A DNA stretch of 64,000 nt, taken from positions 64,001 to 128,000 of the IMG/VR virus record IMGVR_UViG_3300020045_008999. The stretch is one strand, 5' to 3'. This document shows positions 6,027-62,233 of the stretch, in pieces. This stretch comes from a virus (lineage: Duplodnaviria > Heunggongvirae > Uroviricota > Caudoviricetes). The notes below the pieces were generated by a model that made no database searches, had not been told where the DNA came from, and worked only from the letters and a program-made list of their open reading frames with translations. Numbering within the stretch: the stretch's first letter is position 1; the number at the start of each line of letters is the position of its first letter. The position numbers were made by a program, and so were the translations under genes.

Positions 6027-6099
6027 AGTTCCAAAGCTCAAATGGACGAGTCCCCGAATACGGATCGGGTGGTTGTGGGTTCGAATCCCATTGGAACTT
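6027..6099 (+). tRNA. tRNA-Arg (anticodon ACG)
   Basis: AGTTCCA/TGGAACT acceptor, GCTC/GAGT D stem, CCCGA-ATACGGA-TCGGG anticodon arm, GTGGG-TTCGAAT-CCCAT T arm; atypical A8 and A32. Confidence 0.8.
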
Positions 6100-6107
6100 C
6101 TAAATAT

Positions 6108-6193
6108 AGGGAAGTAAGCATAGTGGTACTGCAGCGGTTTGCTAAATCGTTCACCGTTCATTCGGTGCGTGGGTTCGAGTCCCACTTTCTCTG
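6108..6193 (+). tRNA. tRNA-Ser (anticodon GCU)
   Basis: AGGGAAG/TTTCTCT acceptor, GCGGT-TTGCTAA-ATCGT anticodon arm, long variable arm, GTGGG-TTCGAGT-CCCAC T arm. Confidence 0.85.
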
Positions 6194-58832: not shown

Positions 58833-59435
58833 CTATTCCAATCCATCTTTAATTTCATCCAGCAGCTCTTTGAAATTATCCTCATTCAATGTAAGGTCTT
58901 CATTCCAGATGTAAAAGTGTCGCTGATATTTTAGAATTAATTTAATATGTTCAATATTGTCCTTTAAGGATTGTGGGAGTTTATTTTGTCCTAAAAAAAT
59001 ATCACCAGTCACTTCAATATCAATATCACCAGAATAAGTACAAATTATATCAGTATTGGTACTGATATAATCACCACGTACTATACTAGGCGATCCTATT
59101 AATGAAGTTAAATTATTATGAGAGCATTTATAATCACCACCCACCTCATTCGGTGACCCCACCAATGATGTTAATTTATTATTAGAACAATTGAAGCCAC
59201 CATCCACAGTAACCGGTGCGCCATCTAATGATGTCAATGCATTTGTATAACAATAAAAATCACCACTCACTTTTCCAAATCGCAATGGTATTTTTGTGAA
59301 AGTTTGCCAAACCAGAGCTACTGACGCATAAACATCTAGCGTGCCATCCACATTGACAGAATATCCTATTATATTATATTTTTTACATATTGAATAAATT
59401 CGATCATTTTCTTCTTTGTTAATTAAGTTAGTCAT
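58833..59435 (-). CDS. LRR-like repeat family protein
   Basis: N-cap, repeats, C-cap; best in-window match to CRISPR spacer 4. Confidence 0.9.
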   Translation of the reverse strand: MTNLINKEENDRIYSICKKYNIIGYSVNVDGTLDVYASVALVWQTFTKIPLRFGKVSGDFYCYTNALTSLDGAPVTVDGGFNCSNNKLTSLVGSPNEVGGDYKCSHNNLTSLIGSPSIVRGDYISTNTDIICTYSGDIDIEVTGDIFLGQNKLPQSLKDNIEHIKLILKYQRHFYIWNEDLTLNEDNFKELLDEIKDGLE

Positions 59436-59548
59436 GACCTATATATAAAACCCGGTAGTTACTGAATGTTCCAGTATATGAATATTTAATAAAAAATGTG
59501 AGTGAATATAACAAATAAATTAGGATATAATCAAATCAATTTTTATGT

Positions 59549-61204
59549 TTGTATTCTAAAATATTAAATATGCCCAGTACCGGAATTTATTTACAATGCG
59601 AGTATAATCTTGCCACAATAGAATACGATAATTTATATTACAGCAAATCAAAAAATAATAGCAATGGGAATATGCTTGCCCTGCAAATCAACAAAGATGG
59701 GTTTATCTTAGGTGATTATGATGCTGCTAAAAATAAACTTTTCAACATAACTAGTCCGTACGACAAATCACTTATTAATGAAGTCGATAATGTAGTAACC
59801 CCATTAGTCATAAATATACAACAAAAGTTATCCCCCACATCATCAGAATATCACCTGATGTTGACTTCCAATAAAATAAGAAATTTAGCATTGGGCATCT
59901 GGAAAAAATCGTATGATCGAATGAAACTAAGAATGCCGAGCAACTATATTTATAAGCATAGGGACGAGGAATATATAACAGTACCTACTTTACACAAGCA
60001 TAAAACCGATCAAGAGTATTTAAGAATAGAAGTCGAAAAGATTCTAGATGATCCTTACTATGTGGTATCAGAATTTGATGTTATAGGAATTTTGCGCGAG
60101 GTAAAGCACCCACTTTTTTATAGCATACCACCGGCCACGTCAGCCGCTACTGTAGGGCATACATTTTCAGAAATTAAATCTTATTTAGCCGCATTAAAAA
60201 AGTGGTTCACTAATACGACAGAAGATATGCCAAAATGCCCCGGGTTCAAAAATAGTAAATCGTTATATAAAATTACATTTCAAGGTACGAGCCAATTAAA
60301 GGTGACTAAGAATATTACACTACCAAGTCTCAAAAAATTTAATTTGTCCGATATAGTACCCATTGTTATACCTTCCAAAGTTACCGGGGACATCAAGACA
60401 GTTAGCTTTGTCCCATGTAGAAAAGGGTTTATGATTAGTATTACTTATAATAATACCCACAAAGCATTAATGGCATATAAGGATGAAACTTGGATGGGTA
60501 TCGATCCGGGTGTTAGAAATGTACTGGCGATAGAAACCGCTAAAACTAGCAGGGTATTTGATGGATCGGCATTCTTATCCGAACAAAAACATTATCAAAA
60601 TAAAAAGGATAAAATGCAGTCTGTTTTAATGACCAACAAGGATAACGTGATAATGGTTGATGGTCTAGTTAGATGTAAAAAAGGTGCACTCAATACCAAA
60701 CGGTTCAGAGCTCTCAGTTTAAAGCATAATAATAAGGTTGACAATTTCGTACATAAAATAACGGCTGAGATTATCAATATTTGTAAAGCTGATGGAATTA
60801 CTAAGATTTTCTTCGGGCAAAATATCAATTGGAAAAAAGGTAAAAAAATGAGTAAAAAGAATCATGTTCAATTTACTGCTATTCCACATGCCAAGATACT
60901 TGAAAAATTAACATACAAGGCAAAATTGATCGGGGTTGAAGTAATTGGACAAGAAGAAAGTTACACTAGTAAATGTTCATTTCTCGACAACGAACCAATA
61001 CGTAAACATTCCTCATATAAAGGAAATCGTAAACTTGGTCTATTTAAAACTGCAAATGGTATAATAATAAACGCCGATAGTAATGCAGCCTTAAACATCG
61101 CAAAAAAATCATTAAATGCACTGGAAGCTAAAGGGCAGATTATTAACCCACTACCAATAAAATGGTCCGGATGTCATCCAAAAAAAGAAAAAATATTCAA
61201 ATAA
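59549..61204 (+). CDS. tnpB: TnpB/Cas12-like RuvC nuclease, CRISPR-adjacent
   Basis: WMGIDPG (RuvC-I), IFFGQNINWK then QEESYTSKCS (rearranged RuvC-II Glu clade), INADSNAALNI (RuvC-III); 551 aa, longer than typical TnpB; ATG also at 59570. Confidence 0.85.
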   Translation: MYSKILNMPSTGIYLQCEYNLATIEYDNLYYSKSKNNSNGNMLALQINKDGFILGDYDAAKNKLFNITSPYDKSLINEVDNVVTPLVINIQQKLSPTSSEYHLMLTSNKIRNLALGIWKKSYDRMKLRMPSNYIYKHRDEEYITVPTLHKHKTDQEYLRIEVEKILDDPYYVVSEFDVIGILREVKHPLFYSIPPATSAATVGHTFSEIKSYLAALKKWFTNTTEDMPKCPGFKNSKSLYKITFQGTSQLKVTKNITLPSLKKFNLSDIVPIVIPSKVTGDIKTVSFVPCRKGFMISITYNNTHKALMAYKDETWMGIDPGVRNVLAIETAKTSRVFDGSAFLSEQKHYQNKKDKMQSVLMTNKDNVIMVDGLVRCKKGALNTKRFRALSLKHNNKVDNFVHKITAEIINICKADGITKIFFGQNINWKKGKKMSKKNHVQFTAIPHAKILEKLTYKAKLIGVEVIGQEESYTSKCSFLDNEPIRKHSSYKGNRKLGLFKTANGIIINADSNAALNIAKKSLNALEAKGQIINPLPIKWSGCHPKKEKIFK

Positions 61205-61229
61205 TGTTGTGTGTGAATATATAAAGATA

Positions 61230-61237
61230 TATATTTG
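61230..61237 (+). promoter_or_regulatory. Bacteroidota-type -7 promoter box
   Basis: TATATTTG(CAC) between nuclease stop and CRISPR array. Confidence 0.6.
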
Positions 61238-61249
61238 CACCAGTAAAAT

Positions 61250-61360
61250 AATAGGTCGTGAGGCCTTAGCATAAGAAATGCATTGCTTGTAAAAGTATTC
61301 ATTGACAATGTAAGTGGCACGGTGTATGCCCAGAATAGAGTTAATATATTAACTTGAACA
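61250..61360 (+). ncRNA. candidate scaffold (omega/tracr-like) RNA or structured leader
   Basis: Consecutive hairpins incl. AGGTC-GTGA-GGCCT (GNRA loop), GGCA/TGCC, AGTTAA-TATA-TTAACT. Confidence 0.4.
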
Positions 61361-61482
61361 AAATACCAAATAAATTGAAATTGATAATCGGTTATTTCAC
61401 AACATAGATATGAGTTTTATTTCATTTTTTATAAAGAGAATTGAAGATAAACCTAGTGTTTGTAAAGCATTGCGAGGGATAG

Positions 61483-61915
61483 GTTGGGGATGACTACAAT
61501 TTGAAAGGTATATCCACCGGCAAATGGAATCAAAATGGGTTTCGGTAAGTTGGGGATGACTACAATTTGAAAGGTATATCCACCTACCGACGTCTTTAAG
61601 TTCAATTACGTTAGTTGGGAATGACCACAATTTGAAAGGTATATCCACCTCGTGTTGATTAATACAGTGTATTTATATTTGTTGGGGATGACCACAATTT
61701 GAAAGGTATATCCACCAAGAACTACTAGAAGAGATTAAAGATGGATGTTGGGGATGACTACAATTTGAAAGGTATAACCACCGTTAGAGTAGTTTAGGTC
61801 TTCTTTGCGATAGTTGGGGATGACCACAATTTGAAAGGTATATCCACCTTGTTTGATCTTGGAATTGTGATGTTTTTGTTGGGGATGATCACAATTGTAA
61901 AAGGCATGTTCCACC
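61483..61915 (+). CRISPR. CRISPR array, 7 repeats / 6 spacers
   Basis: 36-nt GTTGGGGATGAC(T/C)ACAATTTGAAAGGTATATCCACC at 61483, 61549, 61614, 61681, 61747, 61813 and degenerate 61878; spacers 30, 29, 31, 30, 30, 29 nt. Confidence 0.97.
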
Positions 61916-61951
61916 TTATCATAAACGGTACAATAATATTAAAAACCAATT

Positions 61952-62233
61952 ATGAATTACACTAGGCCGAATAATATTGATCATGAAGATACACCAGAAG
62001 ATATTCTTAATGGTGCATTGATTTTTTGTAGAACAATTAGTATTCTTCTTGAAGATAATACGGGAATTATTGTTGGGTTACATGGTGATATGCGAAGTCC
62101 AACAAATAAAAAAAATGCTACTAAAGTTGTTGTATTCAAAAGTCATAACATGATCCATATTGATGATATTTCGGATGAAGAAGAAGAAATATTATTAGAG
62201 GGTCAATTAATCGCAATACAAAAGGGTAATTAA
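61952..62233 (+). CDS. hypothetical protein
   Basis: 93-aa ORF directly after the array; no Cas2/Csx27/Csx28 features recognised. Confidence 0.65.
   Translation: MNYTRPNNIDHEDTPEDILNGALIFCRTISILLEDNTGIIVGLHGDMRSPTNKKNATKVVVFKSHNMIHIDDISDEEEEILLEGQLIAIQKGN

Follow-up and report, generated by a model that had tools for sequence, protein, structure and literature searches.

A 597-kb bacteriophage carries a gene for an enlarged TnpB-derived nuclease just upstream of a CRISPR array, and, judging from its sequence, we consider it on balance probable that the encoded protein is a type V-like, DNA-targeting effector that uses a captured array of type VI-B derivation. Cas12 effectors are thought to descend from TnpB in about 50 separate events, and the source of each Cas12 lineage's array is unsettled, the two candidate routes being duplication of the element's own guide RNA and landing beside an existing array. 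The locus described here looks like a caught-in-the-act case of the latter route, in which the donor array type (VI-B) is still recognizable and the transposon right end still lies alongside.

Genomic Context of the Locus

The stretch of DNA analyzed (herein the window, 64,000 nucleotides) is part of a virus record of 596,785 bp. The features discussed below are the following.

59497–59512, + strand: possible, degenerate remnant of the ancestral TnpB element's left end (weak; similarity by eye only)
59544–59551, + strand: Bacteroidota-type -7 box TAnnTTTG, promoter element of the nuclease gene (motif match)
59549–61204, + strand: open reading frame of 551 aa from TTG
59570–61204, + strand: TnpB-derived nuclease gene, 544 aa from ATG (family assignment, alignment and model)
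61206–61241, + strand: retained omegaRNA/right-end terminus, an AT hairpin then TTGCACC, also a degenerate repeat-like 36-mer (position and pattern as in relatives)
61230–61237, + strand: second TAnnTTTG box, possible promoter for spacer-region RNA and pre-crRNA (motif match only)
61242–61482, + strand: strongly conserved and non-coding; may be a tracrRNA-like scaffold, the CRISPR leader or both (conservation against the relative L001)
61413–61482, + strand: leader-proximal 70 nt, similar to the type VI-B leader of Flavobacterium columnare (in-register comparison)
61483–61915, + strand: CRISPR array of six 36-nt repeats, six spacers and a degenerate 38-nt terminal repeat (repeat detection)
61717–61746, + strand: spacer 4, a sense-strand copy of the sequence for the C-terminal cap in the LRR-like gene family of the phage (paralog matches)

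The TnpB-family gene lies upstream of the array, in the same orientation and 278 nt from it, and no second TnpB or CRISPR array was found in the 596,785-bp record; this pairing of one TnpB with one array favors their functional coupling. The original prediction had reported that the window lacks cas1, cas2, cas4, cas13 and tnpA, and the absence extends to the full record for cas1, cas2, cas4, cas13b (by both HMM and tblastn) and Y1 tnpA. The nuclease gene shows no sign of mobility (single copy; no Y1 TnpA in 597 kb).

The 93-aa ORF downstream has a homolog on an NCBI contig that sits among unrelated genes, and the TAnnTTTG box is also found just 5′ of many other ORF starts in the window. Rfam returned no match in 60700–62000 at either gathering or permissive thresholds. 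No RNA sequencing runs holding the locus are listed, and three DNA runs from a single riverine study contain only fragments of an L001-like relative.

An Enlarged TnpB with a Rearranged RuvC-II Glutamate

The 551-aa ORF of the original prediction is present with all three of its RuvC motifs, and GIDPG, EESYTS and NADSN fall on invariant columns of a 40-sequence alignment. The catalytic triad is intact (D312, E463 and D503, all invariant), which favors a working nuclease coupled to the array. The likelier start is ATG 59570 (544 aa) rather than TTG 59549, since the promoter box occupies 59544–59551; the entry on record for this protein is also of 544 aa. Pfam assigns it to OrfB_IS605 and Cas12f1-like_TNB (PF01385, PF07282), and NCBIfam guided_TnpB (NF040570) covers residues 209–520 at 95.6 bits, under the cut-off of 100, with the N-terminal 200 residues outside the model. 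The Cas12f2 model scores 56 bits, below its threshold of 450, and the match to PADLOC Cas12f models is confined to the RuvC half. With the single nuclease sequence as query no PDB chain was found, and a clade profile matched TnpB and Cas12f structures weakly (E 1e-13 to 1e-19). For the AlphaFold model (pLDDT 73.5, its N-terminal 74 residues modelled poorly), the best Foldseek matches to the predicted fold were AsCas12f, Fanzor2, ISFba1 and ISDra2 TnpB, and LaTranC was also among the matches.

Gly stands in place of the RuvC-II Glu (IVIGxNxxWKQ), an alternative Glu is present in EESYTS, and the protein has a single Cys instead of the C4 zinc finger. The alignment thus agrees with the earlier assignment to a TnpB clade with a rearranged RuvC-II Glu, and the published description of RIIr-5 TnpB fits the same Gly-for-Glu and EESYTS pattern (PMC10691335). 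Phages commonly carry TnpBs of this clade, 399 stretches having been confirmed in IMG/VR. Their expected size of about 400 aa and lack of an array held as well: no array lies within 3 kb in any of 80 ordinary viral relatives, which makes the adjacency seen here the more telling for coupling.

The nuclease exceeds the roughly 400 aa of its relatives by about 140 aa, including two lineage-specific segments, an N-terminal stretch of 75 aa and, in REC, an insert of 50 aa. Against the 87%-identical homolog dN/dS is 0.17 (0.15 in the N-terminus, 0.24 in the REC insert), and, by this measure, purifying selection acts on the added segments as well. Among 1.84 billion cluster representatives no protein neighbor falls between that homolog and others at 36–38% identity, and no close protein relative was found in IMG/VR. 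Linkage to an array and enlargement are found in one and the same member (the others among the matches listed being about 400 aa), and we take this coincidence, together with selection on the added segments, as a further argument for coupling.

The Association Is Conserved in One Lineage with Spacer Turnover

In the 87%-identical relative (L001/L115), gene, spacer region and array recur at the same site with different spacers, an architecture whose retention favors coupling. Repeats and flanks are conserved around other spacers on the relative's contigs, and the combination of differing spacers with fixed repeats and flanks points to turnover rather than decay; the relative's terminal spacer has no match in the window's phage. 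In nearly all Cas12 loci the array lies downstream of the effector (PMC10691335). Such adjacency of a RuvC effector and a co-oriented downstream array is conserved here in one lineage, represented by two loci at 89% nucleotide identity; as to the proposed check for homologs that are repeatedly array-adjacent, recurrence cannot be claimed from a single lineage.

Repeats and Leader of Type VI-B Ancestry

The seven-repeat array with 36-nt repeats and 29–31-nt spacers that was originally described resolves into six good repeats, almost identical to one another (starting at 61483, 61549, 61614, 61681, 61747 and 61813), and a degenerate seventh at 61878–61915, with spacers of 30, 29, 31, 30, 30 and 29 nt in order. 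The repeat hairpin survived in part: the repeat folds end to end with position 13 (C or U) paired to G25, but its energy is no improvement over that of shuffles.

A likeness to Bacteroidota type VI-B repeats had also been proposed, and the evidence bears it out. The repeat carries a 19-position VI-B motif (GTTGG start, central TTTGAA.GGTAT and 3′ CA.C), and a scan with the VI-B motif recovered multi-copy arrays, of which the four checked all lie beside cas13b genes scoring 780–910 bits. Repeats adjoining real cas13b genes are identical to the window repeat at 24–27 of 36 positions; the repeat beside Riemerella cas13b gives 24/36, within the 24–25/36 given at the outset. The central 13-mer AATTTGAAAGGTA is identical in a VI-B repeat that was found via its cas13b gene, not by repeat pattern. 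The strict repeat pattern had no match in IMG/VR, 185,579 species genomes or JGI metagenome contigs, and cas13b occurred in 2 of 401 sampled genomes of the F. columnare class (L012), a number too small to build a repeat logo independently.

The 3′ end of the window repeat is CACC, whereas it is CAAC in every multi-copy VI-B array recovered, and the GUUG/CAAC terminal pairing kept in all recovered VI-B repeats is broken here without a compensating change. The argument that the repeat has been retuned is thin, because CACC is one base away from the ends of some Bacteroides-type VI-B repeats.

The leader-proximal 70 nt (61413–61482) are identical to the F. columnare VI-B leader at 35/70 positions, the best of 331 registers and a value reached in 0 of 5000 shuffles; gapped local alignment with VI-B leaders was not significant, so that significance is confined to this in-register F. 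columnare comparison. On the strength of these likenesses, we regard repeats and leader as being of type VI-B (Cas13b) ancestry.

A Constrained Region between Gene and Array

The 278 nt separating stop codon and array (61205–61482) are 97.5% identical to L001, compared with 89% for the gene and 81–83% for neighboring genes, and their divergence (about 0.026) is some 15-fold below that of synonymous sites (dS 0.40). CRISPR leaders can show high conservation by themselves. Within the last 70 codons, to which the omegaRNA scaffold of relatives maps, third-position conservation is an unremarkable 0.68–0.80. Constraint therefore appears to have shifted from the ORF 3′ end to the sequence past the stop, which again favors coupling. 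The region 61190–61518 has no stable fold (z-score only -1.4), the best duplex between repeat and flank (-19.4 kcal/mol, compared with -21 +/- 2 for shuffled repeats) identifies no significant anti-repeat, and BLAST of the spacer region against the downstream regions of relatives gave coding similarity only.

A Retained Right End and a Possible Left End

The right-end terminus finishes 37 nt past the nuclease stop; in more than 50 viral relatives the right end lies 29–48 nt after the stop and consists of a hairpin followed by AAT(C/T)ACC. The window's right-end 36-mer is identical to the CRISPR repeat at 22/36 positions in register, a likeness spotted post hoc, with about 14 matches as good in 1.19 million genome positions. 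Both begin with GTTG and finish with CACC, whereas the right ends of relatives have neither the GTTG start nor the central repeat motif. In relatives, one covarying family pair backs a possible pseudoknot that joins a GGUG loop to the CACC terminus; it has no confident placement in the window. At the other side, the left ends of relatives (GGTGATTATATA...) are found about 77 nt 5′ of the ATG as an inverted repeat of their right ends, and the window has GAGTGAATATAAC, loosely left-end-like as judged by eye, about 70 nt 5′ of ATG 59570.

Spacer Matches

Spacer 4 matches more than 40 LRR-like paralogs at 21–25/30, always in the coding sense and with two codons and a stop coming next. The best of these matches is 58841–58870 on the minus strand, and their 5′ flank is GAAAAYTTY(C/A). 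It is the only spacer that can be oriented, the other five having given no orientation. Of the spacers in natural F. columnare VI-B arrays that match phages, 15 of 15 are aimed at the mRNA strand (PMC8092290), and a sense spacer 4, as its matches place it, does not fit mRNA targeting. No protospacers were found: the phage holds no self-target beyond the family likeness of spacer 4, cultured phages gave no significant target, and IMG/VR has no exact match to the 24-nt cores of spacers 1, 2, 4 or 5.

Proposed Origin and Mechanism

We hypothesize a cross-type capture, which is quite possible though less secure than use of the array itself, in which a zinc-finger-less TnpB with a rearranged RuvC-II would have taken over an existing VI-B array together with its leader, the 3′ end of the repeat would have come to mimic the omegaRNA terminus, and spacers would be supplied by host adaptation machinery. 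Under this hypothesis an RIIr-5-like TnpB became fixed directly 5′ of an array and leader of VI-B ancestry and, as a captured-array nuclease, would have gained about 140 residues. Transcription would run from about 61245 onward, through the conserved spacer region and into the array, and each crRNA would present a repeat hairpin finishing in CACC immediately 5′ of a guide of about 30 nt, a layout like that of the ancestral omegaRNA (hairpin, CACC, then guide). The conserved 240-nt region may provide the remaining scaffold in trans in the manner of a tracrRNA. Most likely the nuclease takes array crRNAs as guides and would cleave the DNA of competing, closely related phages, and host Cas1–Cas2 probably inserts new spacers by acting on the VI-B-type leader. 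We thus infer crRNA loading, DNA targeting, a T-rich 5′ PAM and adaptation in trans. The resemblance of the terminus to the repeat, the CACC end, the constrained spacer region, the turnover of spacers and the sense orientation of spacer 4 all favor coupling of nuclease and array, and the system is likely young, independently born and phage-borne. Of the TnpB-to-type-V transition with a captured VI-B array as originally put forward, the clade, the small array-free relatives, the VI-B likeness of the repeats and the absence of adaptation genes find support, so that the proposal is borne out in part.

The repeat and leader are still so clearly VI-B-like that a host Cas13b could be the user. The array would then be an orphan, virus-borne VI-B array, and the adjoining TnpB an ordinary immobile element with its own omegaRNA and a fixed guide from 61242, their adjacency being the result of an insertion and without function. 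This reading, the main rival, which we hold to be unlikely, accounts for the VI-B signature, length and spacer size of the array, its F. columnare-like leader, the mobile-element-like left and right ends that the nuclease gene retains and the frequency of same-clade TnpBs in phages; moreover, effector-less arrays are frequent in huge phages, where host Cas proteins may serve them (PMC7162821), and VI-B loci obtain spacers in trans (PMC8092290). Chance, however, would place a single TnpB within 300 nt of a single co-oriented array in 597 kb at about 5 in 10,000, and the explanation leaves aside the lineage-specific enlargement of the protein under selection. It also sits poorly with a CACC end that breaks a pairing kept by every recovered VI-B repeat, with the modest identity (24–27/36) of even the closest VI-B repeats and the absence of the strict pattern from species genomes and JGI contigs, and with spacer 4 being sense rather than antisense.

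Improbable in our judgment is that the nuclease works with its own omegaRNA alone, whether in homing, in the exclusion of related phages' markers or in regulation, beside an array that is a decaying or regulatory relic with no interference effector. The surviving right-end terminus, the shortness of the array, its degenerate terminal repeat and the lack of any spacer target apart from the self-related spacer 4 agree with such a relic, but six near-identical repeats, turnover of spacers between fixed repeats and flanks and strong constraint on leader and spacer region do not. That the array was born de novo, from a right-end segment of the element duplicated in series, and came to look VI-B-like by convergence is very improbable: although omegaRNA-segment duplication is the favored general route (PMC10691335) and the 36-mer right after the stop shares 22/36 positions with the repeat, including its GTTG start and CACC end, the repeat fits the VI-B motif, length and spacer size, shares AATTTGAAAGGTA with the cas13b-recovered repeat and follows a leader matching a VI-B leader in register, and the right ends of relatives lack both the GTTG start and the central motif.

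Implications and Comparison with Known Systems

Insertion next to a pre-existing array is a route to Cas12 that "cannot be ruled out" (PMC10691335), and cross-type capture, if true, would make this locus its first documented instance; an array of an RNA-targeting system would have been re-used for DNA targeting. Should the protein use these crRNAs, arrays would be exchangeable between RNA-targeting and DNA-targeting effectors, the rearranged-RuvC TnpB clade would be a further source of CRISPR effectors, and this compact, zinc-finger-less nuclease one to test as an editor. The locus also bears on how huge Bacteroidota phages fight related phages.

Among known systems, RIIr-5 TnpB (Altae-Tran et al. 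2023, PMC10691335) shares the Gly RuvC-II, the EESYTS Glu, an NADxN RuvC-III, the single Cys and a right-end hairpin then ...CACC just past the stop. The window protein, in contrast, is about 140 aa longer, single copy and without a sign of mobility, has an array downstream, shows no extra RNA-level constraint at its ORF 3′ end and scores just under the guided_TnpB cut-off. TranC, young V-U and Cas12f-like systems, which also occur in phages, share a compact RuvC effector with a downstream array and no adaptation genes, a conserved gene–array region of 100–300 nt (where their tracrRNAs lie) and a predicted structure matching AsCas12f and TnpB, with LaTranC among the matches. Unlike those systems, the window protein belongs to the TnpB clade with the rearranged RuvC-II (Cas12f2 at 56 bits against 450), and its repeats appear captured from VI-B rather than derived from right-end RNA, with no tracrRNA anti-repeat demonstrable. 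In TranC the repeat corresponds to the 3′ part of an ancestral right-end RNA and the rest serves as tracrRNA; such a split RNA may have a counterpart here in the 36-mer (22/36 to the repeat, CACC common to both), and the repeat is nearer to VI-B (24–27/36).

Huge-phage effector-less arrays and virus-borne mini-arrays are similarly short (7 repeats here; huge-phage median 6), lack Cas1 and Cas2 and have among their spacers one related to a gene family from the phage's kin, whereas the window array adjoins a candidate effector gene in a conserved association. The VI-B arrays of F. columnare, Chryseobacterium and Riemerella differ from the window locus in that the phage genome has no cas13b, the repeat ends in CACC rather than CAAC at 24–27/36 identity and spacer 4 is sense, and yet they share with it the 36-nt repeat motifs, the 30-nt spacers, the leader likeness and an order of effector gene, leader and array in the GTTG direction.

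An Enlarged TnpB-Family Nuclease beside the Only Array in the Genome

The window covers positions 64001-128000 of an IMG/VR record that is 596,785 bp long, with a completeness rating of 98%. The window has a GC content of ~31% and numerous small ORFs on both strands, many with a motif match to the TAnnTTTG box (the Bacteroidota -7 promoter element) closely 5' of their starts; two neighbouring tRNA genes lie at 6027-6193 (Rfam, 47 and 44 bits). The TnpB-type ORF with RuvC motifs and the adjoining seven-repeat array of the original prediction were both recovered: the ORF (59549-61204) translates with no internal stop and its catalytic residues are invariant. ATG 59570 is the likelier start, since the resulting 544 aa match the length of the database entry (P0002) and a -7 box (59544-59551) stands 19 nt ahead. 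The absence of cas1, cas2, cas4, cas13, and tnpA, originally claimed for the window, extends to the whole 597 kb, in which no cas1, cas2, cas4, cas13b, or Y1 tnpA, no second TnpB gene, and no other such array were found. The locus comprises:

59570-61204 (+), TnpB-family nuclease gene
61206-61241 (+), retained right-end terminus (omegaRNA-type), a hairpin then TTGCACC, ending 37 nt past the stop codon
61483-61915 (+), CRISPR array; six repeats of 36 nt, then a terminal one that is degenerate and 38 nt long; spacer length 29-31 nt

The degenerate repeat at the distal end places the leader on the nuclease-gene side.

The nuclease matches the Pfam families OrfB_IS605 and Cas12f1-like_TNB; the NCBIfam guided_TnpB model scores 95.6 bits across residues 209-520, slightly below its cut-off of 100, and the Cas12f2 model reaches 56 bits where 450 is required. 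Exhaustive HMMER scanning of 1.84 billion cluster representatives agreed with a word-indexed search of 5.8 billion proteins: both returned one close homolog (P0003, 87% identity), after which the best matches are ~400-aa TnpBs at 30-38% identity, with alignments beginning at query residue ~165-180. A 40-sequence alignment contains the clade-wide motifs IVIGxNxxWKQ, EESYTSKCSFLDNE, and INADxNGAxNI, invariant D312, E463, and D503, and a single Cys at the place of a C4 zinc finger. The clade matches the description of RIIr-5, a RuvC-II-rearranged TnpB clade in which the RuvC-II Glu has become Gly, its loss is offset by an alternative Glu, and the RuvC-III motif is NADxN (PMC10691335). Relative to its clade, the nuclease is longer by ~75 residues at the N-terminus and by two inserts, one of ~50 residues within the helical REC region and a small one past RuvC-I. 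Its AlphaFold model (pLDDT 73.5; core confident, N-terminus poor) structurally matches AsCas12f (E 7e-15), Fanzor2, ISFba1 TnpB, ISDra2 TnpB, Cas12p, and LaTranC. The single sequence matched no PDB chain; the clade profile found TnpB and Cas12f there at E 1e-13 to 1e-19.

Ordinary Relatives and the Retained Right End

At least 399 IMG/VR stretches encode TnpB relatives, and none of the 80 loci fetched (L031-L110) has an array within 3 kb, in keeping with the predicted membership of a rearranged clade of ~400-aa, array-less proteins. Copy-to-copy similarity among these relatives stops 29-48 nt past the stop codon, where an AT-rich hairpin leads into AAT(C/T)ACC; their left ends lie ~77 nt 5' of the ATG and are an inverted repeat of the right ends (~12 nt; left GGTGATTATATA, right TATATAATCACC). 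The last four bases ahead of the right-end boundary and the loop of a hairpin conserved further upstream vary in concert (GGUG/CACC in 29 loci, GGUA/UACC in 18), which, on the basis of one family pair, suggests a guide-adjacent pseudoknot in the ordinary relatives.

The right-end 36-mer runs from GTTG to CACC; aligned in register, it shares 22/36 positions with the array repeat. Equally good repeat matches occur at ~14 of 1.19 million genome positions, which gives ~0.005 for one in this gap and on this strand, for a likeness noticed post hoc. At 61316-61330 there is a small hairpin (GGCA, 7-nt loop, UGCC) whose loop contains GGUGUA, complementary to the right-end UGCACC with one wobble pair and, across four bases, to the terminal CACC of the repeat; this complementarity could be chance (~0.1).

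Type VI-B Ancestry of Repeat and Leader

A search of one genome per species with a loosened repeat motif, GTTGG-N12-TTTGAA.GGTAT-N3-CA.C, returned 20 loci, nearly all in Bacteroidota. Of the multi-copy arrays, the four checked (F. columnare, Chryseobacterium, Bergeyella, Riemerella) all have a cas13b neighbour (ORFs of 780-910 bits with the Cas13b model). The window repeat is identical to VI-B repeats at 24-27/36 positions, mostly family-conserved ones, and shares the central AATTTGAAAGGTA with a VI-B array located independently via cas13b (25/36 by hand count), bearing out the VI-B likeness originally proposed. All of the multi-copy VI-B arrays recovered have repeats that close with CAAC, the pairing partner of the 5' GUUG; the window repeat closes with CACC and shows no change that would compensate.

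The F. columnare locus runs from cas13b through a 140-nt leader into an array in the GTTG direction, a layout that the window reproduces with the TnpB-like gene at cas13b's place. The 70 nt adjoining the first repeat agree in register with the F. columnare leader at 35/70 positions, the top of 331 registers and equalled in 0/5000 shuffles; gapped local alignment on its own, of window leader against VI-B leaders, was not significant. In several natural VI-B arrays (L012, L017, L021, L022; e.g. F. covae, Bergeyella) there are repeats split by an inserted segment of ~55-70 nt. Among 401 sampled genomes of the class of the F. columnare genome behind L012, two carry cas13b, so VI-B hosts are a small minority of the genomes searched.

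Constraint and Spacer Turnover in a Diverged Relative

A 4,207-bp contig from a riverine metagenome run (L001) bears the 87% homolog, the same gene-array gap, and the beginning of repeat 1. Nucleotide identity between contig and window stands at 89% for the gene, drops to 81-83% for the genes around it, and reaches 97.5% across the 278-nt gap, whose divergence is ~15-fold below that of synonymous sites. For the gene, dS is 0.40 and dN/dS 0.17 (N-terminal extension 0.15, REC insert 0.24); third-codon identity over its last 70 codons is at the ordinary level (0.68-0.80). The nearly invariant gap carries in L001 (3955-3970) a 15-nt tandem duplication (CTTGCAAAAGTATTC) at window 61285/61286. Contigs of the same study keep the repeats, terminal repeat, and downstream gene and have exchanged the spacers at 61650-61680 and 61849-61877, indicating that spacer content turns over. 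Over window positions 58853-59502, the LRR gene just 5' of the nuclease gene is mostly replaced in L001 and the other riverine contigs, with 648 nt skipped and 183 other letters between; flanking gene content is therefore fluid, while nuclease, gap, and array are fixed.

Small LRR-like genes of one expanded family dominate the window; one lies at 58833-59435 (minus strand), with >40 other sites in the genome. Spacer 4 resembles the C-terminal cap conserved in this family (..LLDEIKDG followed by two codons and the stop), matching >40 paralogs at 21-25/30, always in the coding sense and with a 5' flank of GAAAAYTTY(C/A); the best match (25/30) is the paralog directly 5' of the nuclease gene, with mismatches at third-codon positions. 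No other protospacers were found for the array's spacers. The true target is likely the LRR gene of a related phage, and the wobble mismatches would spare the phage's own copies.

Are Nuclease and Array Coupled?

We consider it somewhat probable, from these sequence comparisons, that nuclease and array form a young, coupled type V-like system. A single TnpB adjoins a single array in 597 kb, and a diverged relative has kept this adjacency through spacer turnover. In a very large family, the one protein linked to an array is also the one that is enlarged, and it evolves under purifying selection; constraint has moved from the ORF end to the gap, and right end and repeat have the CACC terminus in common. 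Spacer 4 also favours coupling: with transcription in the GTTG direction, its crRNA would be in mRNA sense, unable to base-pair with the transcript. VI-B spacers in natural F. columnare isolates are directed against the mRNA strand in 15/15 cases; laboratory acquisition yields many non-mRNA spacers (PMC8092290). The coupled reading is weakened by the lack of a demonstrable anti-repeat and by an association carried by one lineage; moreover, CACC is just one base from some VI-B repeats, and leaders can stay conserved for their own reasons. The proposed TnpB-to-type-V transition with a captured VI-B array is partly supported.

The main rival, in which a host Cas13b uses an orphan VI-B array and the adjoining TnpB is an immobilised element, is still plausible because huge phages do bear effector-less arrays (PMC7162821), but we judge it rather unlikely. 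What probability remains falls to relic or de novo scenarios for the array.

Because both repeat and leader are of VI-B ancestry, a pairing of nuclease and array would exemplify array capture, a route to Cas12 left open by PMC10691335. In the coupled reading the locus would thereby differ from TranC systems, which arose by right-end duplication.
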